A stretch of DNA of 64,000 bases. It comes from a virus. The number at the start of each line of letters is the position of its first letter. Positions within the stretch are counted from its first letter, which is position 1. Below are positions 1 through 64,000 of this stretch, one piece after another. The notes under the pieces were generated by a model. That model was not told the origin of the DNA. It saw only the letters and a list, made by a program, of their open reading frames with translations, and made no database searches. The DNA lies in the IMG/VR virus record IMGVR_UViG_3300035703_000082, positions 496-64,495 of that record, one strand, 5' to 3'. Position numbers and translations under genes: made by a program.

Positions 1-1
1 T

Positions 2-3000
2 GTCCACGAAGCCCCGGGCATCAGCCGGGATGCGCCCCTCGTACTGCGGGTTGGCCTTGACCAGCGCGTCGACCGAGTCGTAGATCTGCACCCGGCCCAG
101 ATCCGGGAACGCCTTGCGCAATTCCGTGCGCACGCTGTCGGTAGTGGACGGGGTGGCGGTAGCGCCACGGGAGAAGAACGCCTCTTCACGCGGCCCGCCG
201 AGAATCTCGATCTCAGGGGCTTCGTATTCAATCTCTTCGCCGGCTATATCTTTTACTTTAGGGCTACGGTACATGCCGCCGTCCCACGGCTTAAAGCCGC
301 TCTTAGCGTACCATGCCTCTAGTTGTTTTGCGGACAGCCCCTTAGTACCGACTTTTTGCGGCTGCAGCGTTAGCGTAACGCCGTGCTTATCAGCCAAAGC
401 CAGCAGTTTTTTGAGTACGGCAGATGCTTCGCCCTTACCGCCGACGCCGTTGTTTCTGATAAGGCTAATGTATGCGCCCTTGCCTGGAGAAGGAAAAACG
501 TTTTTCTTTACATCAACGTCAACATCTCCAAACGCACGCAATCCTTTTTCTTTTTTGCTCGGCTTGGTTATTTTTTCAAGCGACTTAAGGAAACTGTCTA
601 CGTTTTGTTCAGCAGTGCGCTTACCCTTGGTTTCAGGCGTTCCCTCGAGTTCTTTCGCGATTGCCGCTTCTTCTTTTGCCGTCAACGGTGCTTTTTCCGA
701 CAGCTTTACTTTTGACAAAGTAAGCGCGGCAAGCTCAGCCTCCGCCTCCGCCAGTTGTTGCGCTCGCGTGTTGCTGTCGCCTTTGGTCACGATCTCATAT
801 CGCGCTTCAGCAACAGCAAGCTGTGCCTCCGCAAGGCGCTTCTCTGACGGCGTTTTTGCTGACGTAACCGCGCTCTCGGCGGCGATTACGTTTGCCTCCG
901 CCTGCTCCTTCCGCGTCATCGGAATGTCGCGCTGCCGCACCCCCAGGACTTCCTTCAAGCGGCCATCAGGCTGCGTCGTCGTCTCTCCAGCACGACTCTC
1001 CTCCGACCCGGTACGCATCTCGCGCGGTGCAAAGACTTCGGGCCGAGTGACCGGGCCAATGGCGCGGGGGCCAAGGCGTTCGCCTGTAGTGCGGCTGCGC
1101 AGAATCTCGGCGTTCAGGGCTTCGCGCTCCTTGCGAACCGCAGCCGGATCGACACGCAGCACCTTCGGCGCACCCAACGCAGCCGCCAGCTTGCGGCGGT
1201 GTCCAACGAGTTTTTGCTCGGCGTTAGCCAACGCTTTACGCGCTTTCTCGCGGCGTGCCTCTAGCGCGGACTCAGCTCCTGCCGGATCATCCTTGAACGT
1301 CTTCTTGTCGCGCACCGTCAGCTTGATGTCCGCAAGCTTCTTGCGCAACGTATCTACAGTCTTTTCGGCAGCAGCAATGTTGTTGATGTGCGTGTTCGCC
1401 GTAGACAGCCGTTTCTTTTCGTCTGCGGACAGCTTGTTTTGCTTGGCCTCTACGTAGGCATCGGCCTCTTTTGCCTTAGCCAGCCGCTCCTCCGGCGACA
1501 GCTTCGTGTCGTACACGGCCTCGGCCAGCGCAAGATACTTCGGATCGGCAGAGATGATCTGCTCTCGCGCACGTTGGAACGTGATGACTTCGCGCGGTGC
1601 GGCCTTCCCCGGGAAGGGCCCTTCCAACCGCTCCAGCCGCGCTTGCTCGGCTTGCGCCGCCTCGGCAGACGCGCGTTCACGTTCGGCGCGGTCCGCACGC
1701 TCGGTGGTGGGCGGTGGTGCAGGCGGAGTCTTGCGCGCCTCGATCAGCGACTGCTTCGTGCGCAGTTCTTTCTTGAGCGCGGCGGCACCAGTGCGCAGTT
1801 CCTGCGCGGCCTTCTGCAGCTTGCCGACCTGCTCTCGCGTGCCCCGTGTGTTATCTGCGACTTGCGCAAGCGCCTCTTGCGCCGCAGCATAGTTCTGCTG
1901 CGCACGATCAAACGCATCGAACTGTTCTTGCGTGCCGCTGTAAAGCCGCAGTTCGTCTTTGGCGCGCGTCGCCGCTGCATCGATGGATGCGCGGTATCCT
2001 TTGATCGCCGCCGTAAGATCCGAGCCCGGACGGTCAAGCGCCTTCAGGAACGCTTGATGCGCAGCTTCCCGCTGCTGGACAAACTGCTCAAGGTCCGTTT
2101 GTTTCGCAGTTTTTTTCAGCAAACTCGACTGCCTACTGAGCCGCCGCATACGCGCATCAAACGCATTGTACAGCGCCGCCTCTTTGTCGAGGTAGTTTTG
2201 CAAGTCCGCGTCGCTTAGCGGCGAGAAGACCTTAATCTGGGCGGACGCTTTGTTGAACGAGTCCTTGGCGCTCTGCAGTTTCTTGCGGGCGGCGTCGAGC
2301 TGCCGCTTAGCCAGCGAATACTCCGCAAAGGTCGTAGACGTTTCACTCCAGTCCTTGCCGATGTTTTTCTGGACAACGTCGCGCTTGTACGTCTCGGCCT
2401 TCACCCACTCGTCGAGCGCAGTCTCGACTTTTTCTTTCGCAGCACGCAGGGCTGCGAAACGCGCGGCATCGCCCTTGAACACGACGGCTTTGTCTGTGCC
2501 GCCGATGGCGGGCACTACGTCCGTCTTTTGTGCCTCTACCGCCGCCAGCAGCGCGCGAGTGTGGTCACCCAGCGCACGGGCAGATTCTGTCGCGGCGTCG
2601 AGGGCTTGCGCATACCGCTGCTGTGCAAGATCCCGCAGGGCCAATACTTGCTCGAAGTCGCTCTCCAACTCGTTGCGAGCGGCAGCAAGATCAGCCCGCG
2701 CCAGCTCCACGCGCCGCTGCGCTGCCGCACGTTCGGCACCCATCGTGCCCTCCAGCGCAGCAATCTCGGTATTGAGCGCGGTCTCCTTGGCCTTGAACCC
2801 TTCGATCTGGGCCTTCAGCGGCTCTAGCTCCGCCTGCATGCGCACGACGGACAGCGCGGCTTCACCGTCCTTGCTGACCAAAATAGGCGCACGGGTGGTG
2901 AGGTAGTCGTAGAACTCCTTGTACGAACCGAACGCCGTGGCGCGGGGCTCCGGCATCTCCGGGAACTCCGGCTGCACCCCGGCTTCTTGCTCCGACGGAC

Positions 3001-5695
3001 GGGCTTCTGCAATACTGCGCAGCGTCTCTTGCACCTGGGCGTTGCCCTGCGGGCTCCCGCGTCCTGACAGTGTGCGGTACATCCACTCGGCTACACGCCG
3101 CGATGCCCGCTCTTCTGCCGCTTGGCGCGGCACAGAGGGTTCTGCCAGCGCCGCCTCGTACCGCACGTAGGCAGGCAAGTCGTCGGCAACTTCCGCCACA
3201 AGTGCTTTGGTCTCGTCGTCCAACTGCGGCGCAGCCTGGATGCGCTGCGCCATCGCGCGGATGCGCTCGTCCAGCGGCCCTCGGGGGCGCACACTGACCT
3301 GCGGGCTTTCGGCAGGCAGACCGACCGTGGTCGTGGTGACGGTGGGCTGCATCCGGGCGTTGAGCTGCTGCTCCAGAGCCTCGATGCGCTGACGGACACC
3401 CTCGATGCGTTGAAACGTCTCAGGCGATGGCCCGAGCGGAGAGTACGGCCCCTCTGCGCCCGTAGGTGCAGCGCCTGCTTCGCGTTGCGTCCGCGTCAGC
3501 CTGCGCAGCTCTCGGTACTGCTCGGCAAGCTGTCTGCGCAGTGCAACAACCTCTGGGGCGGCGCGGCCAACGACCTGAGCACGCGCACCTTCGCGCGGCG
3601 TGGGCAGTTCCGGCGCAGCAGGCTCTTCAGTGCGCTCAATCCGTTGCCGCCGCTCGGGGAACAGCTCAAACTGCTGGTCTTGGCGCAGGGTGCCGTAGGT
3701 ACGCTCCAAACGCCGCGCTTCACGGGCCTCGCCAACCGCCTCACGCAGCGGCTCTTCTCCGGCACGAATACGCTCCAGCGCTTCACGCTCACGCTCCACC
3801 CGCTGACGCGCCTGGGCTTCTGCGGCAACAGCCGCCTCACGCTCCGTACGCGCAGCCTCACGCCCTGCACTGATCTCGTCAAGCAGCTCCGCTTGCCGCT
3901 GCTGCTCCGCAGCAATCGCTTCTGGGGCAAACAGGCCAGTATCGGGACTGAGCGCCTGCAGTTGCTGTCGAACTTGCAGCAGCTCGGGCACAACTTCCAG
4001 TACTACGTCTTGGTCGCCGCTGTCCAGCGCTTTTGCGTAGCGTTCTTCCAGCTTCTTTGCACGGTCAAGCAGCTCTTTTTCTTCCGGCAACGCTTCGGCA
4101 GTTTTCTCTGCCTCTTCTACCGCTTTCTTTGTGCGAGCAACACGCTGTGCAATTTGTGCGGCTTCTTCCGGCGATGCCGCCGCTTTCATCTCTTCGCGCT
4201 GTTGAGTCAGCAACGCTTGCAATCCGGGAAGTTCCTGGCGCATACGCGCAGCACGTTCCTCGGCAGTTTCTTCGCCCACAAGCTCTCGCTGCGCATAGAC
4301 CTCGCCGGAACGCCGAGCTTCTTCGGTCGTTTGCGCCCGCGCACGCTCGGGCAGCATTTGCACTCGCGCAGCCCGTTCCTCCGGCGTTTCTTCCGCAGCC
4401 GGCGTCAACTCAAGCCGGCTTTCACGCGCTTTCTTTAGCGCTTGCGGACCCCCGGCAGAGAGGAACTCTTGTCGTGCGTCAGCAAGCGGCTTCTTCAGTG
4501 TCTCAAGCTGCTGATTGATAACGGCGTTGCTATCTTTGTCTTCCTGCGACAGCGGTGCTTCTTTGGTGCCCTTTTTGCGCTGCGCTTCGAGTGCTTCTTT
4601 TTCGTCGAGCAGCTTCCTGTATTCGCTGTACGAGGACTCGATGTACTCCGGCGCTTCGCGCTGTGCCTTCTCGGCCTGCGCTGCTGCCCGACGCTGCTCG
4701 GCGGCTGCGGTTTCTTCTGCTGCACGGGCTTCGGTGCGGGCTCCAGCCCGGTCAAAGGCACGGCCTGCGGCACCCAGGGGCGTACCCACCAGCGCCCCGC
4801 CGTAGGCGTTCTCGCCGTACTCCTTGAGGGCGTCGTCGTCCAGCAGGGGCAGCCCCGCCTGAGCCCGCTCCGCCACGGCCTGCAGCACTTCGGTCGGCAC
4901 GTTGGTCGCAGCGCCAACGCCCGCACCCTTGGCGAGCACCGTGGCAAGGTTCTCCTTGGCAAGCGCTTCGGCGGCTTCCTTCTTGCCCTGACCAAGTAGC
5001 GCGTCGACCTGGGGGCCGAAGACACTGCGGGCGACACGCCGGCCCAGTGGGATGAACGTCGCTGCGGCCTCCAGGCCGGTCTGCAACGCCGCCGCGCCTG
5101 CGGCAGGGCCCAGCTCCACATCCACCGCTTCGCCGCGTGCACGCTGCTCCGCAGCCTGCCGCTCGATGTTCGCGCCGTACAGCGAGGGGAAGATCGTCGC
5201 CAGGGCACCCAGAGTGCCGCCAATGACGGGGCCTGCCGGGGCCGCAGGCCCGAGGAGAGGCGCTGCTGCCGTGCCCGCCAGCGCACCAGCCTTGGCTCCG
5301 CCCAGCGTCGCAGCAAGCTGCGGGAGCTGCTCAGTGATCGCCAGGGGAACTTGGCGCAGGATCTCACCTACGGCGGCGACCGCACCGCGCGAGCCGTACG
5401 CCTCCTTGACCTTGTCCCAGCTCACCTGACTGGCGTAGGGCGAGTTGGCCGCACGCTCCAGCGCCAGCTCCGCTGCCTTGTTCTCGTCCCCAAACGTGGC
5501 CTGCGCCGCCGTCGTGGTGGAGCCGATGAGGTTCTCTACACCCGTGGCAAGAGCCGCACCGAAGCCCGTGCGCGGGGCAGGTTTAGCTGTTGCTTCTTGT
5601 TGATGCGTGTAGTTGGCCCACCGCCATGCAGTGCTCTCGTCAGGCGCGTCTACACGGTAGACGTTGTTGCCAACTTTTACGTCATAGGAGGGCAT
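2..5695 (-). CDS. Giant internal virion / polyvalent protein, N-terminal >=1,898 aa (runs off the left edge); includes a GNAT-like module
   Basis: ATG at 5695 (MPSYDVKVGNNVYRVDAPD...). Segments translated by hand are open, and the ORF track lists no closed minus ORF in this frame, consistent with no stop before position 2. Ala/Gly-rich hydrophobic N-terminus, then long E/K/Q/A coiled-coil, then GNAT-like segment. Last gene of the internal-protein cluster. Confidence 0.85.
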   Translation of the reverse strand, partial: MPSYDVKVGNNVYRVDAPDESTAWRWANYTHQQEATAKPAPRTGFGAALATGVENLIGSTTTAAQATFGDENKAAELALERAANSPYASQVSWDKVKEAYGSRGAVAAVGEILRQVPLAITEQLPQLAATLGGAKAGALAGTAAAPLLGPAAPAGPVIGGTLGALATIFPSLYGANIERQAAEQRARGEAVDVELGPAAGAAALQTGLEAAATFIPLGRRVARSVFGPQVDALLGQGKKEAAEALAKENLATVLAKGAGVGAATNVPTEVLQAVAERAQAGLPLLDDDALKEYGENAYGGALVGTPLGAAGRAFDRAGARTEARAAEETAAAEQRRAAAQAEKAQREAPEYIESSYSEYRKLLDEKEALEAQRKKGTKEAPLSQEDKDSNAVINQQLETLKKPLADARQEFLSAGGPQALKKARESRLELTPAAEETPEERAARVQMLPERARAQTTEEARRSGEVYAQRELVGEETAEERAARMRQELPGLQALLTQQREEMKAAASPEEAAQIAQRVARTKKAVEEAEKTAEALPEEKELLDRAKKLEERYAKALDSGDQDVVLEVVPELLQVRQQLQALSPDTGLFAPEAIAAEQQRQAELLDEISAGREAARTEREAAVAAEAQARQRVEREREALERIRAGEEPLREAVGEAREARRLERTYGTLRQDQQFELFPERRQRIERTEEPAAPELPTPREGARAQVVGRAAPEVVALRRQLAEQYRELRRLTRTQREAGAAPTGAEGPYSPLGPSPETFQRIEGVRQRIEALEQQLNARMQPTVTTTTVGLPAESPQVSVRPRGPLDERIRAMAQRIQAAPQLDDETKALVAEVADDLPAYVRYEAALAEPSVPRQAAEERASRRVAEWMYRTLSGRGSPQGNAQVQETLRSIAEARPSEQEAGVQPEFPEMPEPRATAFGSYKEFYDYLTTRAPILVSKDGEAALSVVRMQAELEPLKAQIEGFKAKETALNTEIAALEGTMGAERAAAQRRVELARADLAAARNELESDFEQVLALRDLAQQRYAQALDAATESARALGDHTRALLAAVEAQKTDVVPAIGGTDKAVVFKGDAARFAALRAAKEKVETALDEWVKAETYKRDVVQKNIGKDWSETSTTFAEYSLAKRQLDAARKKLQSAKDSFNKASAQIKVFSPLSDADLQNYLDKEAALYNAFDARMRRLSRQSSLLKKTAKQTDLEQFVQQREAAHQAFLKALDRPGSDLTAAIKGYRASIDAAATRAKDELRLYSGTQEQFDAFDRAQQNYAAAQEALAQVADNTRGTREQVGKLQKAAQELRTGAAALKKELRTKQSLIEARKTPPAPPPTTERADRAERERASAEAAQAEQARLERLEGPFPGKAAPREVITFQRAREQIISADPKYLALAEAVYDTKLSPEERLAKAKEADAYVEAKQNKLSADEKKRLSTANTHINNIAAAEKTVDTLRKKLADIKLTVRDKKTFKDDPAGAESALEARREKARKALANAEQKLVGHRRKLAAALGAPKVLRVDPAAVRKEREALNAEILRSRTTGERLGPRAIGPVTRPEVFAPREMRTGSEESRAGETTTQPDGRLKEVLGVRQRDIPMTRKEQAEANVIAAESAVTSAKTPSEKRLAEAQLAVAEARYEIVTKGDSNTRAQQLAEAEAELAALTLSKVKLSEKAPLTAKEEAAIAKELEGTPETKGKRTAEQNVDSFLKSLEKITKPSKKEKGLRAFGDVDVDVKKNVFPSPGKGAYISLIRNNGVGGKGEASAVLKKLLALADKHGVTLTLQPQKVGTKGLSAKQLEAWYAKSGFKPWDGGMYRSPKVKDIAGEEIEYEAPEIEILGGPREEAFFSRGATATPSTTDSVRTELRKAFPDLGRVQIYDSVDALVKANPQYEGRIPADARGFVD

Positions 5696-5704
5696 TGATA
5701 CTCC

Positions 5705-7339
5705 TTACCTAACCCGTTGCACTGCGCCGGGGGGCGGCACATCACTGGCACCCGTGGGCGCGGTATCCACCGTCATGCCGCCGAGGCGTGCGAGTTGCTC
5801 GCGAAGCCGCACGGCGCGTTGTTCAGCGGCTGCACGCTGTGCAGGAGTGGCGCTCAAGGAGGCCGCAACTGTGTTTGCCTCCTCCAGCAATGCACGGATC
5901 GCGCTCACTTGCCCGGTATCAACGCGGCTCTCGCGTCCGCCCCCTTGCTGCGCCCGTACAAGGTCAGCTTGAGCAGCAACACGCCTTGCCCCCGCTTCGA
6001 CCTCGGTCGCGGAAGTCTTCCGCTCTTCCCGCCCTTCCGACGCCAGTTTGAACTGGTAGTCGCGCAGGGCTTCCGATGCCTTGATTTCTGCCGCCGCGAT
6101 ACGCTCGCGGTCGCCCGAGCGGTAGGCGAGCTGTTTCTCCAGCATGGCTTGGCGCAGGGTTTCTTCTGCGTCCTCCAGCGTCATCAGCTCCTTGCGGAGC
6201 TGCCGCTGCTGTTCGCGCCGCTTGGTCTCGAATTCACCCACGCCCTGCGCTGCGCCTGACAGGAATTCCCCAAGGCTCTTGGCCCCACGGGCCCCGCCAA
6301 GCGCTGCCGCCAACGCGGCTTGCCGCTGCTCCTCCGGCGTCTGATCCAGGCTCCTGCCATACTCCTCGCGCTGCTGTGCACGGCGCGTCAGCCGCGCCTC
6401 CTGGCTCTTCAGGAGCGCTTCGCGCAGCGCCTTCTCGTCTTCGGGCACGGTGCCTGCGCCGCGCACGCGGCTCATGTAGTCCTCGATGCTGAACGGCGTC
6501 ACGCCCGGAGGCAGTGCCGATGCAAGGCCGGGAGCTTGTGCAGGCGGCGTAGCCGCAGCGGCAGGAGGCCGCGCAGCAGGCGGAGGCGGGGTTTGACGGG
6601 GTGGGGGCGGCGTTTGGGACGCAACCCTGCGCCCTTCTCGCACCGCTGCGGGTTCTGGGTACGACTGCGTCGTAGCTGCCCGTGCCGGCGCAGCGGCTGC
6701 GCCTGCGGCAGCAGCAAGCCCTGCTGCAGGAGCCGGAGAAATACGCCCTTGAGTGAGCGCGTCCAGTATCGGGAGGCGTTGCTCGGGAGGCGTGCGGAAG
6801 TAGTCCATCACGCTGCGAAACGCGCGGCGCAAGGGGCGGTTGGCAATCTCGTCCGCTTCTTCAGCTTCGCGGCGCTTACGCGCTTCGTACTGCGCACGCG
6901 TCTCCCCAGGCTCCGGGCCTTCGCGCGGGGAGAAGATCGGCACGCCGCCGACGGAGGTGAGCGTGTCATCGGCACGCGTCGCTCCACCCAACTGAAACCC
7001 CTGCACCTGCATCAACCCGCCTTGCGCGGCGTTGACGGTGCCCATGACGCCTTCGGCCACAGTGCGGGGCTGCTGTGCCAGTTGCTGCTGCGCGGACTGA
7101 AGCTGCTGCGCTTCGCGCATCTGCTGCATCTTGATCTGGCGATCTCGCGCAGCGATGATGGCGTACGTCGGCACGCCTTCCGGCGGGTTCATGTACAACT
7201 GCTTCAGCACTTCAGGCGGCAGCTTGACCAATGAATCTACCGTGCTCGGCACCGGCTGCTGCACACCCTGCTTCGCCTGCATGGCAGAAAAAAGCCCGCT
7301 CATGGTGGGCGCGGCCTGTCCGGGCATTTGCGGCATCAT
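5705..7339 (-). CDS. Internal virion (ejection) protein
   Basis: 544 aa, Q/A/P-rich and coiled-coil; position among the late internal-protein genes; AAQGGLM motif. Confidence 0.65.
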   Translation of the reverse strand: MMPQMPGQAAPTMSGLFSAMQAKQGVQQPVPSTVDSLVKLPPEVLKQLYMNPPEGVPTYAIIAARDRQIKMQQMREAQQLQSAQQQLAQQPRTVAEGVMGTVNAAQGGLMQVQGFQLGGATRADDTLTSVGGVPIFSPREGPEPGETRAQYEARKRREAEEADEIANRPLRRAFRSVMDYFRTPPEQRLPILDALTQGRISPAPAAGLAAAAGAAAAPARAATTQSYPEPAAVREGRRVASQTPPPPRQTPPPPAARPPAAAATPPAQAPGLASALPPGVTPFSIEDYMSRVRGAGTVPEDEKALREALLKSQEARLTRRAQQREEYGRSLDQTPEEQRQAALAAALGGARGAKSLGEFLSGAAQGVGEFETKRREQQRQLRKELMTLEDAEETLRQAMLEKQLAYRSGDRERIAAAEIKASEALRDYQFKLASEGREERKTSATEVEAGARRVAAQADLVRAQQGGGRESRVDTGQVSAIRALLEEANTVAASLSATPAQRAAAEQRAVRLREQLARLGGMTVDTAPTGASDVPPPGAVQRVR

Positions 7340-10002: not shown

Positions 10003-11352
10003 TCAAGTCAAGTCCCAGAAGGACAGCGAACCGATGGCGCTGTGCGTGCCGCTGAGCGCCCTGGCGGCGATGGTGTAAATGTCGCTTGTACCGCCGATAG
10101 TTGCGCCGAGCTGCAAGTCCCAGTTGTAGTCTGAACCACCGCTAGACTGTCCCTGAGAGAGCGTGGACGACAGCACATACGTGGACTCAATGATCGTCCC
10201 GCCAGTCAGCGCCGTGGCAGAGATGTCTCGCTCGACGTTGGTGGAGTCCGTAGCCCCCCAAGATGCACCGGTCAGAGTGGCGTTCTTGATCAGCACTATC
10301 TCGAAGGTCGTAGGCGATGTTGCCGTGGGTAGCACGTTGTAGCCGTCCGGGATGACAATAGCCCCGGTGCGGCCTGAAGCAAGACGAATCGAGACCAGCG
10401 GAACGAAGCTCGTGCTGATACTGCTGTTCACCGCCGTCATCCGCGCTACAAACGGCGCGACCTTTTTCTCGTACCCACCCTCGGAGATCACCGTCGAGCA
10501 GATCTGCTTGAGGATCGCCCCGGTACTAGCGCCCGTGTTCGTGATCTCATAACGCACCGGCAGCATCGCCGTCGTCATGTACACGCTTGTCAGGTTGTTC
10601 GCATTATTGAATGTGTGGCAAATGATGGTCTGTCCATCAATGACGAACCCAGCGCGTACCGAGCCGACCCCAAGCCACTCAAAATCCTGCCAGAATATCT
10701 GTGCCTTGGTCAGGTCGAGAGTGAAGCCAGAGTCCCCAGTGCCGTTGAGCTTGTCGCCGTTCCAATCTGCCTGTGCCACACGGGTATCCACCGCTGAGCC
10801 CGTCACGTAGGTGCGCCTAACGATGTAAACAGCGGTGCCGTCGCGTTCCAAGAACACGCCATTCTCGGTGTTGAAGTAGCCGATGCGGATACGCTGGTTG
10901 GCGTTGGCCGTAGGCATCACGAACGTGTTCAGCACCAGCAAGCTCTTGCCCGGCTGATAGCTGAACGAACGGTAAGTCTGGCGAACTACCTCGGAGCCGC
11001 TTGACGCCGTCACCTCCAAGTTCACCGTGCTGGCGTTGGCAACGTACGACACCGATCCGCCTGTAGCGGTGGTTTCACTGAACAGGTCGTTCTTCTCGTA
11101 CCTATTCTGGCTGTCGAACAGGGTATAGGGTTGGCTGAACCGCGCCCGACCGAAGGCGTCCAGGGCCGTGCCGTAGAAGTTCACATTGACCGGCGCTGCA
11201 TCCACAATTTGCCCCAGAAGACTGTCAAGTTGGTTGAAGTAGAGCCGCAGGACGCTGATGAACTGGTTGAAGTAGTTCGGGTCGTAGACAGGCGTGGGCA
11301 ACGGCAGCGCCGGTGCCTTGAAGCGCTTGATGACATTGGCCCAGATACTCAC
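10003..11352 (-). CDS. Virion structural protein (tail-associated; beta-rich C-terminal domain)
   Basis: 449 aa; N-terminal APALP..P..YD..YFNQ...LRLYFNQLD segment followed by a T/S/V beta-rich region. Confidence 0.55.
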   Translation of the reverse strand: MSIWANVIKRFKAPALPLPTPVYDPNYFNQFISVLRLYFNQLDSLLGQIVDAAPVNVNFYGTALDAFGRARFSQPYTLFDSQNRYEKNDLFSETTATGGSVSYVANASTVNLEVTASSGSEVVRQTYRSFSYQPGKSLLVLNTFVMPTANANQRIRIGYFNTENGVFLERDGTAVYIVRRTYVTGSAVDTRVAQADWNGDKLNGTGDSGFTLDLTKAQIFWQDFEWLGVGSVRAGFVIDGQTIICHTFNNANNLTSVYMTTAMLPVRYEITNTGASTGAILKQICSTVISEGGYEKKVAPFVARMTAVNSSISTSFVPLVSIRLASGRTGAIVIPDGYNVLPTATSPTTFEIVLIKNATLTGASWGATDSTNVERDISATALTGGTIIESTYVLSSTLSQGQSSGGSDYNWDLQLGATIGGTSDIYTIAARALSGTHSAIGSLSFWDLT

Positions 11353-13241
11353 GACTTACGCCCGTCCGGCCTGATGTCGATGCGCGGCACACCAAGCTGC
11401 CACTGCACGCCCTGTCCCGTAGACCCCACCTTGATCGCCATCTGGCGTGCCCGGATGCGGATGTTGACCTGCTCGGTGAAGCGCTCGACCGTGGTCGTCG
11501 CCACCCGCGCCACAGGGAAGGCGTTGCTCCCTGCAACTGACATGTTGGACGTATCCGTAGCCACCGGGTCCACGCCCCGCGTGTAGCCCGAGCCGGAGTT
11601 CTGCAGCGTGAGGAGAGACAGCTCGACGCTGGGCTGGGCAGGGAGTGCCGTCGTTGAGCCGTTGAACGTGATGTCCGGAATCACGCGCCAGACAAACCCG
11701 AAGTTGTGCCCGTCGTCGATGTCAAACTCAGCCGAAGTGATGTAGGACTCGAAGCCTACCGCCGAGGGGCCGGAACCGTCATCACACCCAGTCTCTTGCA
11801 GCAACAAACGGCTGTTGTAGTCGGCTGCAATGGGCACATCCTCAACCACGCTTGCATCGACCCAAGCAGTGCGAGCCATCGTGCCGTAGTACCAGATCTT
11901 CTCGGCGTAGTTGTAGACAACGTACTTGTCAACAGAAGTGGAGCCTGCGGAGCAGTAGAACCACCAGACCTCACTGAACTGCTCCACGGTAGAGGCGAAG
12001 ACTTGCAGCGGCTGGTCGTAGTTGAAGTCGTTGAAGATGTACTGACGAATGTCGCAGTTGAGCGTCTGAACCCGCCCGTCGAACAGATAGAACTTCTCGT
12101 AGCCCATCCAGTAGGTGACGCCTGCGGCGGTTGCCCAGGCGCGGTCACTGACAATTGAGACGTTGTCCGCAAGGATCTGCGAGCCCCAGACGATGGGCGG
12201 GCCGAGGTACTGCAGGGAGTACAGCGAGGTGTCCGTCCAGACCAGAATCTCTTGCCGCACCTGGGCAACCGCCTCGATGGCGGAGCCGTGAGACAGGCGC
12301 AGGCTACCCGCTTGTGTGGTCGCTGCAGGGGTCCAGTTGGCGGCGGTCTCTTGATCCGACCAGCGGATCAGCATGGGGTCCAGATTGGTTGAGCCGTAGT
12401 CGGTGGTACCGAAAGCCAGGACGAAGCGCGAAGCGTCGGAAACGACGATGTAGTTCGACTTGCTGGGCGTGTCGCTTGCACCCGTGAGCGTCGAGATATT
12501 GACCGCCCGCGTGCCGGAGCCGATGGTCGCCGCGTCCCAGTAGTAGATGCCGCCGCCCTTGGGGTTGATCAGCAAATCGTTGCCGAAGTTGTACGCGGTC
12601 CAGAGGCCGAAGTCCAAGGGGACGAAGGGCGTCGAGCTGCCACCCCACACACCGGAGCCCCAGCCACCGGAGCCCCAGCCCGTACCCGACGCGGGTGGGT
12701 ACTGGATGACCGACCCGACGTTGACCTGATAGGCAGCAGACACCGCTGCCCCACCGCCCGAACCCGCAGGCACCGTCGTGCTGTACGTGATGGTGTAGTT
12801 ATCGACGTCGATAACCGTGACTTGATACTCGCCGGAGATGGTGACCCCGGAGAATGCCGTCGCACCACTGAAGGTGACGAAGTCGCCTGTGAGCGCACCA
12901 TGCGCCGGGTCGTAGACGTTGATCGTCGTTGTGCCGTTGGCAGTGAACGGGTTGTTAGGCAGCGTCCTCGTGGTGCGCAGCGGCGTGATGTCGTAGTACC
13001 CACCGTACTGGATGTAGTACTTGAGGTGCGTGCCGACACCGACGAACTGTGTCCAAGGCCAAAGAGAGCGGCAAACACCAAGAAACTGGTCATTGAGCAG
13101 CCGCGCCCACCCGCCGATCTTCTCAGGCTGCCCCGAGCGGAAACGGACTTTGTCGCAGAAGTACCACCCACGGTCTTCTGAAGCGTAGCGGGTGTTCTCA
13201 CGGAACACCCCCGGGCGGATGCGTACAGCTTTCAGCGGCAT
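11349..13241 (-). CDS. Tail hub/nozzle protein (P22 gp10-like DNA stabilisation protein)
   Basis: 630 aa, W/Y/G-rich beta-propeller-like; IRWSDQE...W motif; position in a podovirus tail module. Confidence 0.7.
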   Translation of the reverse strand: MPLKAVRIRPGVFRENTRYASEDRGWYFCDKVRFRSGQPEKIGGWARLLNDQFLGVCRSLWPWTQFVGVGTHLKYYIQYGGYYDITPLRTTRTLPNNPFTANGTTTINVYDPAHGALTGDFVTFSGATAFSGVTISGEYQVTVIDVDNYTITYSTTVPAGSGGGAAVSAAYQVNVGSVIQYPPASGTGWGSGGWGSGVWGGSSTPFVPLDFGLWTAYNFGNDLLINPKGGGIYYWDAATIGSGTRAVNISTLTGASDTPSKSNYIVVSDASRFVLAFGTTDYGSTNLDPMLIRWSDQETAANWTPAATTQAGSLRLSHGSAIEAVAQVRQEILVWTDTSLYSLQYLGPPIVWGSQILADNVSIVSDRAWATAAGVTYWMGYEKFYLFDGRVQTLNCDIRQYIFNDFNYDQPLQVFASTVEQFSEVWWFYCSAGSTSVDKYVVYNYAEKIWYYGTMARTAWVDASVVEDVPIAADYNSRLLLQETGCDDGSGPSAVGFESYITSAEFDIDDGHNFGFVWRVIPDITFNGSTTALPAQPSVELSLLTLQNSGSGYTRGVDPVATDTSNMSVAGSNAFPVARVATTTVERFTEQVNIRIRARQMAIKVGSTGQGVQWQLGVPRIDIRPDGRKS

Positions 13242-63152: not shown

Positions 63153-63384
63153 GAGAGGGCAGGGGTTCTTTGTCCCTGCCCTCGATCTGGAGGCTGTGAA
63201 GGAAGCGGTGCTCCGAGATGCAGTGCGACACCGCGTGCGCGGTGTCGAGGCTGCCTACGGCATCAAGCAGGGGAAGCTGGGAGTGTTCTTCTATCGAAGA
63301 GTGCGCGGGCTCGCTGCGCGATTTCGATCTTCCTCTGCCGTGCCAGATCGAGCTTCTCCCTTTTTTCCGCAGGACTTAGCGTAG
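63115..63384 (+). CDS. Small putative DNA-binding protein (paralog of 46935-47207)
   Basis: LPWTQLERGQGFFVP...GVFFYR. Confidence 0.55.
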   Translation: MPTFRNLPWTQLERGQGFFVPALDLEAVKEAVLRDAVRHRVRGVEAAYGIKQGKLGVFFYRRVRGLAARFRSSSAVPDRASPFFPQDLA

Positions 63385-64000
63385 GCGAGGCCCGCACGTT
63401 GCGCTCGAAGGTGGTGATCTCACCCATCACCTGACGGAACTGCCCAGCCACCGACGCCGCCGACAGCTCGTCGGCCTTCTCTGCCGCGTAGCGCTCCGCG
63501 TCGGCCCTGCGTCCGGTCTTCAGCATGTTCTCGTAGGTGTTCTGAACCTGCTGGATCTCCTTCATCCGCGCGTAGGTGGCGTCGATGATGCCCCCTGCGT
63601 CTATCGGCTGGAAGAGCGTGCCAACCAGCGGCAGGTCAGCCATGCGCCGGCTCGCAGCCTGGGCCCCCTCACCCTCGGGCATGAGGAAGTTCAGCGACTG
63701 CAGCAGCGCCATGCCCATGCCGCCCGTGTAGCCCCGGATGGCGTACTCCAACTGGATGGGCGAGATGCCGAAGGTCTGGCCGATGGCCTTGGCCGCTTCC
63801 GAGGTGTTGTCGCGGAACCGCTCCTCGGGCTCCCGCGCCTGCTCTTGCGTGGACTCGATGTCGCGCCCGGTGAAGAACGACCGACCCATCGCCAGCTCGA
63901 TGGCGGGCTTGACGCCCGCAGGCAGGGGCACAGGCACCGGCACGCCGCCGATCTGGGGCATGCTGCTGCCGCCCGGGATCGTGTTGATCACGATCTGCTT
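63263..64000 (-). CDS. C-terminus of a large polyvalent protein (LPD38-like), truncated by the window edge
   Basis: ELAMGRSFFTGRDIE...SPIQLEYAIRGYTGGMG; open to the window end. Confidence 0.7.
   Translation of the reverse strand, partial: KQIVINTIPGGSSMPQIGGVPVPVPLPAGVKPAIELAMGRSFFTGRDIESTQEQAREPEERFRDNTSEAAKAIGQTFGISPIQLEYAIRGYTGGMGMALLQSLNFLMPEGEGAQAASRRMADLPLVGTLFQPIDAGGIIDATYARMKEIQQVQNTYENMLKTGRRADAERYAAEKADELSAASVAGQFRQVMGEITTFERNVRASPTLSPAEKREKLDLARQRKIEIAQRARALFDRRTLPASPA

Follow-up and report, generated by a model that had tools for sequence, protein, structure and literature searches.

A minimal AcrVA5-like GNAT domain as probable exchangeable cargo of a giant phage polyvalent protein

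What is encoded by the AT-rich stretch near the left end of this viral DNA, how did it come to lie inside a giant gene, and what could it do there? The window (the whole stretch analysed, 64,000 nucleotides) corresponds to bases 496-64495 of the IMG/VR virus record IMGVR_UViG_3300035703_000082, a contig of 66,647 bp rated complete by CheckV. Its left end is occupied by a giant open reading frame (ORF) on the minus strand, in which the initial annotation had placed an acetyltransferase-like module of the GCN5-related N-acetyltransferase (GNAT) type, acquired by a horizontal swap. We favour the reading that window positions 242-682 encode a catalytically plausible, AcrVA5-like minimal GNAT domain, carried as an exchangeable cargo cassette by a polyvalent protein (3025 residues or more) of an uncultivated phage; the domain would probably acetylate a host protein after entry. 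The features concerned are listed in Table 1.

Table 1. Positions, within the window, of the GNAT domain, the giant gene and associated features
Feature	Window positions	Strand	Remarks
Minimal GNAT acetyltransferase domain	242-682	-	Envelope of the family hidden Markov model (HMM); residues 1672-1818 of P0002; domain of ~130 residues
Motif A, G-G-K-G-E-A	425-442	-	Pyrophosphate-binding loop between beta4 and alpha3, from alignment A1 and the secondary structure of the model
W-Y-A-K-S-G-F	293-313	-	alpha4/beta6; Tyr invariant; W, G and F >90% conserved
Patch of low GC3 (GC content of third codon positions)	206-835	-	Codons ~1621-1830; GC3 over 60 codons 0.40-0.58; spans the GNAT domain together with the Lys-rich linker on its N-terminal side
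Giant ORF	2-5695	-	No internal stops; continues past the left window edge
Rest of the giant ORF outside the GNAT domain	683-5695	-	N-terminal block and long coiled-coil-like central region
3' part of the giant gene (C-terminal block)	63263-64000	-	Pfam LPD38, E 1.7e-30
Start of the constant block	2-175	-	~670 nucleotides in all, onward to the contig start (contig bases 1-495); GC3 0.83-0.92; invariant H-E-V-G-A-H
Two genes upstream of the giant gene	10003-13241	-	PHROG 'virion structural protein': phrog_1645, E 2e-107; phrog_3287, E 7.5e-59

The nature of the module was best revealed by its predicted structure. An AlphaFold2 model, computed with a family alignment (A1, described below), reached a predicted local distance difference test score (pLDDT) of 90.2 and a predicted template-modelling score (pTM) of 0.83. 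It displayed a helix, three strands, helix alpha3, a strand, helix alpha4 and two strands, i.e. a minimal version of the GNAT fold without beta1 and one N-terminal helix. When the model was compared with known structures by VIA-align, AcrVA5 was the top match (6iuf_B; Z 10.5, root-mean-square deviation 2.4, 90 of 95 residues aligned). All 50 matches listed were titled acetyltransferase or GNAT, the other 49 lying at Z 7.2-8.4 and including RimI, TacT, NatD and Naa50. Foldseek likewise returned almost nothing but GNAT-type acetyltransferases from the PDB, at weak E-values starting from 1.6e-3, while its matches in BFVD included phage proteins annotated as 'N-acetyltransferase domain-containing' together with large structural proteins. 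At the sequence level, the A1 profile retrieved 6IUF chain A, again AcrVA5, as the first PDB entry (E 1.1e-4, the next being at 0.052) in a list composed mostly of GNATs. A phmmer search of the PDB with the window copy as single sequence gave nothing significant, so that the link emerges only via the family profile. The predicted fold of the module is thereby confirmed as a GNAT fold, as the initial annotation had proposed: both kinds of search it had named as a check, by profile and by structure, return GNATs with AcrVA5 in first position. Its hand translation also matched the minus-strand giant ORF, the quoted stretch corresponding to window positions 293-478, inside the interval 250-720 that it had given for the module.

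The module belongs to a large family. With a stretch of 187 amino acids as query, phmmer found 336 homologues at E<=1e-3 among 1.84 billion representatives; the best 150 of these 336 comprised 83 solo proteins (<=200 residues) and 35 proteins of more than 600 residues. Homologues occurred either as solo proteins of 100-160 amino acids or as domains within other giants, and solo and fused copies were interspersed in the family tree, the resolution of which was poor. In other giants, the GNAT domain was accompanied by ART-PolyVal (P0023, P0082), LPD38 (P0028, P0060, P0125) or LPD39 (P0083), and further by NUDIX, Zeta_toxin or ParB_N domains. Some large proteins (P0008, P0120, P0006) displayed two to four tandem copies of the mini-GNAT. 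The family was not recovered everywhere: neither blastn with window positions 1-6000 nor tblastn with the module yielded a match among 50,697 phage records, and no relatives were found among viral contigs with the module, or P0005, as query. A match in a genome contig, L013, was rejected as a family member since it received no support from the family HMM. Likewise, the giants of Vibrio phage 1.183.O, Yersinia phage fHe-Yen8-01 and Morganella phage Mecenats66 were considered as cultured carriers and discarded, as they gave no HMM match.

Conservation within the family is concentrated at the positions expected of an acetyltransferase. Motif A of GNATs (Q/R-x-x-G-x-G/A) lies in the beta4-alpha3 loop, where it binds the pyrophosphate of acetyl-coenzyme A (acetyl-CoA), and its first position is usually R or Q. 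Alignment A1, composed of the window copy and 65 solo homologues (66 sequences), displayed an invariant Gly in this loop, an invariant Ala in alpha3 and an invariant Tyr, together with nearly invariant D, L, W, G and F; its consensus reads G-x-G-x-A-S ... L-A-D-K-H-G-V ... W-Y-x-R-x-G-F. The invariant Gly is the middle one of motif A, and the first position of the motif is occupied by Gly in the window copy, Lys in the relative P0004 and Arg in most members. The 'GxGxA' motif A of the initial annotation therefore needed correction: its G-x-A core is present, and the literal motif is G-G-K-G-E-A. Its WY..GF motif B was found as described, with the Tyr invariant over the 66 sequences. When AcrVA5 is aligned to the profile, this residue falls opposite a Tyr and, by analogy with other GNATs, would act as the general acid. 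The window copy matched the A1 profile at E 1.4e-38, a value that is partly circular since A1 includes this copy.

The gene around the domain is larger than the window suggests. On the whole contig, the giant ORF reads without stops down to base 2 (P0002, 2063 residues), and the opposite contig end displays a minus-strand ORF with an open 5' end (P0003, 962 residues), which carries LPD38. As the related records L005 and L006 have the equivalents of P0002 and P0003 in a single ORF (2565 and 2827 amino acids, respectively), the window gene codes for one giant with a minimum of 3025 residues and is interrupted where the record was linearised. Its two upstream neighbours with structural annotations (Table 1) lie on the same strand, which places the giant gene in a structural module, and among isolated phages, homologues of its C-terminal part bear the annotations large polyvalent protein, virion structural protein or DarB-like antirestriction. 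The protein is very large, contains an LPD domain, belongs to a virion or late module and displays shuffled effector domains between constant parts; it is a polyvalent protein of phage type as described by Iyer et al. 2017 (PMC5512222). An ART domain was not detected in the available sequence of the giant, nor were helicase or methylase domains detected in it. As to the integrity of the record, a simple circular join of the contig ends leaves the two halves off frame by one base and produces an immediate stop, indicating that sequence is missing there. The 'complete' contig thus appears to be without at least a few bases, possibly a whole cassette, at the linearisation point.

The origin of the cassette was approached through its composition and its distribution. 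The AT-richness reported by the initial annotation was borne out, the module having a GC content of 0.49 against 0.649 for the remainder of the gene. Its lowest 450-bp segment (window 290-739) reached 0.487, where the genome averages 0.613 (standard deviation 0.053), and was the seventh lowest GC patch of the 66.6-kb genome. Codons 1655-1822 showed a GC content of 0.49 and a GC3 of 0.488, compared with 0.649 and 0.718 in the remaining gene, and form the lowest GC3 window of the gene; the upstream flank of the module itself had a GC3 of 0.70-0.73, so that the module forms a local minimum. The first and second codon positions were also low (GC1 0.57, GC2 0.41), and 27 of the 168 residues were Lys. 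A synonymous shift was visible as well: GAA and GAG occurred in a ratio of 10:3 in the module versus 80:130 elsewhere, and the module contained no GTG codon at all. Part of the AT contrast is owed to the neighbouring constant block, which is unusually GC3-rich and almost invariant.

Distribution was more informative. Eight homologous giants were compared, five from IMG/VR (L004-L008) and three from metagenomes (L009-L011), and the GNAT domain was missing from all of them, including distant ones at 44-48% identity; the opposite outcome, a domain present in all homologues, had been named beforehand as evidence against a swap. The A1 HMM recognised the domain in its own genome and in none of L004-L008, and for L009-L011 absence was judged solely by tblastn matches, which start after the module. 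The metagenome scan yielded only distant giants, all of them GNAT-less. From window position 174/175 leftward to the contig start, the DNA was 94% identical to that of the GNAT-less L004, L005 and L006, most 60-nucleotide bins being 97-100% identical, and upstream of this point it was unrelated. The breakpoint at ~175 is sharp, lies 67 nucleotides downstream of the GNAT envelope and bounds the variable segment on the right. The same limit was seen in the proteins, where similarity to L004 and L006 begins only at residue 1837 (90-92% in the best tblastn segment), apart from an N-terminal block (residues 42-370) that is 57% identical to its L004 counterpart.

The only close GNAT-bearing relative found was P0004. 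Its GNAT core was 83% identical to that of the window giant and the halves of its neighbouring block 81% and 55% (~69% overall), compared with the 90-92% of the GNAT-less L004 and L006 in this block. Possession of the GNAT therefore does not follow how closely the adjacent blocks are related, a discordance that is the signature of recombination. The linker and coiled regions adjacent to the core were 48-51% identical to those of the window giant, and a domain conserved to such an extent above its linkers is indicative of purifying selection. Residues 1418-1671 of the central region were also present in P0004. Within them, a patch of 115 residues upstream of the GNAT linker (residues 1536-1650, window ~746-1090) was 88% identical to P0004, with neighbours at ~50%, and was missing from the GNAT-less homologues.

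Several observations weigh against the view of an active, exchangeable cargo enzyme. The variable centres of the GNAT-less L004, L005 and L006 also had a GC3 of 0.48-0.70, rising abruptly to 0.8-0.97 on reaching the constant block. Residues ~370-1836 were wholly unalignable to the GNAT-less homologues, and without a conserved left flank the insertion cannot be delimited: the difference lies within a variable central region and is not a clean insertion. Only one close GNAT-bearing relative was found, and P0004 is a fragment of 813 residues. The window copy displayed Gly in motif A where GNATs usually show Arg or Gln, and it gave no Pfam match even at E<=1; in its relatives at E<=0.1, Acetyltransf_7 was matched by 27 of 66 and Acetyltransf_1 by 17 of 66, with a best value of 1.9e-5, sub-threshold scores that befit a divergent minimal form. 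Finally, likeness of fold cannot separate protein acetyltransferases from tRNA-acetylating toxins, both of which lie at Z ~8. As GNAT-less centres are GC3-poor too, composition by itself argues only weakly for transfer, and its use as proof of a recent import is weakened accordingly. The horizontal swap of the initial annotation is supported by a mosaic origin and by absence from the nearest homologues, with the reservations that the insertion is not a clean one and that the argument from composition is weak.

The first two of these observations bear on the alternative in which the domain is an ancestral or long-standing part of this giant gene, as opposed to a recent horizontal import. Its AT-richness would then result from its Lys content and from its location in a fast-evolving centre of low GC3, and GNAT-less relatives would have lost or replaced it. 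All the GNAT-less centres rise in GC3 at the same constant block, the low GC1 and GC2 of the module fit its 27 Lys residues, and the unalignable stretch is the entire 370-1836 segment, not the module alone. Yet, with eight homologous giants devoid of the domain, one gain is a more parsimonious assumption than repeated loss. Identity of the neighbouring block is at odds with GNAT presence, the module is a GC3 minimum relative to its own upstream flank, and solo and fused family members are intermixed in the tree. We regard a long residence of the domain as unlikely.

The ambiguity of the fold bears on another alternative, in which the module acts like the GNAT toxins TacT, AtaT, KacT and GmvT and acetylates charged tRNA after entry, thereby shutting down host translation. 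These toxins, of ~150-175 residues, are paired with antitoxins and act on aminoacyl-tRNA. They share the GNAT fold with the window domain and occupied the top Foldseek ranks (TacT2, TacT1, AtaT, GmvT and KacT, E 1.6e-3 to 7e-3); VIA-align gave TacT2 a Z of 8.2 and TacT3 a Z of 8.1, and the module with its linker is Lys-rich (27/168), as would suit a nucleic-acid binder. However, AcrVA5 outranked the toxins both by structure (Z 10.5 versus 8.2) and by profile (E 1e-4), TacT or AtaT chains being absent from the 14 profile matches listed. The window domain, at ~130 residues, is also ~40 residues shorter than the toxins. It is fused inside a giant ORF, and no adjacent small gene could supply an antitoxin partner. 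Moreover, a translation block at entry would harm the phage too. Toxin-like action was therefore judged quite improbable. It is very improbable that the module is a degenerate, non-catalytic GNAT fold (ligand- or CoA-binding, or structural) or finds its substrate within the capsid, in a component of the phage or a small molecule, instead of in a host protein: the lack of R/Q in motif A, scores below every Pfam GNAT model and the stripped-down fold would agree with this, but the motif-A Gly, the alpha3 Ala and Asp and the alpha4 Tyr are invariant or nearly so in 66 sequences, the core is under apparent purifying selection relative to P0004 (see above), and AcrVA5, which is just as small, is an active enzyme.

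This leaves the AcrVA5-like cargo domain as the favoured reading, and a course of action may be sketched for it. Packaging, entry and host-protein acetylation, like the role of ejection protein assumed by the initial annotation, are steps that we infer from gene context, the polyvalent-protein literature and AcrVA5 biology. The giant would be packed in the virion and enter the cell along with the DNA. The GNAT domain, either tethered or released, would draw on host acetyl-CoA and, by analogy with known enzymes, acetylate a lysine or the N-terminus of a host protein after ejection, most likely a defence factor or another early-acting one. Such acetylation would precede any phage gene expression, and the cargo filling a given slot would differ from one phage of the lineage to another. 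A more specific version, in which the domain is a pre-made virion anti-defence enzyme and the lineage re-arms itself by swapping cassettes that flank a ~670-nucleotide recombination-anchor block, is possible but doubtful.

AcrVA5 itself is a 92-residue GNAT anti-CRISPR of Moraxella bovoculi prophages. The window domain shares with it the minimal GNAT fold, an aligned motif A and Tyr, and a phage-borne origin. In contrast to AcrVA5, which is free-standing and early, it is internal to a virion giant, displays an extra N-terminal helix and has no start codon of its own. Sequence identity between the two is only ~14%. AcrVA5, the protein of structure 6IUF (PMC11021501), acetylates K635 of Cas12a and K55 of Cas2 (PMC11021501, PMC13131331). 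AcrVA5-like mini-GNATs in phages were already known; another protein of the AcrVA5 type is AcrVA5Bsp (PMC10799925).

The constant block next to the domain has counterparts at L004:10014-10682, L005:10079-10707 and L006:10014-10641. It is 94% DNA-identical in phages that have only 35-57% amino acid identity in the parts of this protein on either side, a contrast that might be explained by extreme constraint, by recent spread or by a role as recombination anchor for cassette exchange. It matched the PHROG 'DarB-like antirestriction' at E 1e-6. Its model reached a pLDDT of 83.5, with a best fold match at Z 4.7 and zincin-like chains at Z 3.2-3.4. A cargo-releasing zincin peptidase is a candidate function, for which the block offers H-E-x-x-x-H, as opposed to the canonical H-E-x-x-H, and no convincing structural match.

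Further observations were made around this block. A second variable slot follows immediately (contig bases 2-40; L004:10650-10763). It opens with a Met and a stretch resembling a twin-arginine signal, S-R-R-T-F-L-R-G-A, continued in L004 by a hydrophobic run, and from its sequence it looks as if the gene of a protein exported by the twin-arginine (Tat) pathway had been captured in frame. Both our contig and L004 end within this second-slot cassette, ~80 nucleotides apart; P0004 displays a different insert of ~150 residues there, and L005 and L006 none. In addition, a hydrophobic-F-S-R/K motif (F-F-S-R-G, L-L-F-S-R-K, I-L-F-S-R-N or P-L-F-S-K-R) heads both constant blocks, at residue 1841 of the giant (window ~165-175) and at residue 45 of P0003, and occupies the same places in P0004 and L005-L008. 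It is kept even in relatives that are ~30% identical, over what are still few instances, and, from its sequence and position, may be a processing site or a tag of domain boundaries.

Large virion-associated proteins such as DarB of phage P1 and the T7-type internal virion protein D are thought to enter with the DNA and to protect it. The window giant resembles them by the DarB-like match of its constant block, and another giant with the GNAT domain, P0023, has a homologue of 'internal virion protein D' at its end. The similarity is restricted to short blocks, and packaging and ejection are predicted features of the window giant. That polyvalent proteins carry GNATs as cargo, frequently beside an ART domain, and that solo forms of these GNATs exist in phages, has been described (Iyer, Burroughs, Anand, de Souza, Aravind 2017, J Bacteriol, PMC5512222). 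This study assigned its two GNAT families to a RimI-like clade and predicted that they modify host proteins on entry (PMC5512222). The present domain agrees with them as a small GNAT inside a giant with LPD38, among virion genes, with relatives beside ART-PolyVal and with solo forms. It differs in that its nearest solved relative is AcrVA5, a structure solved later, the families being compared here by description only. No paper dealing with AcrVA5 and polyvalent proteins together was found in the literature searched. The structural link to AcrVA5 is therefore a modest addition. As a class, such cargo has been on record from 2017 onward, and it turns up repeatedly in metagenomes.

Anti-defence enzymes, of which AcrVA5 is an example, are known in the form of free proteins expressed early. 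A version fused into a virion giant would act at time zero and in sub-stoichiometric amounts, and it bears on how phages pass constitutive defences. The specific value of this locus lies in its set of cassette-plus and cassette-minus phages around a nearly identical (94%) anchor block, which constitutes a natural comparison for cargo swapping and for the contribution of the cassette to host range.

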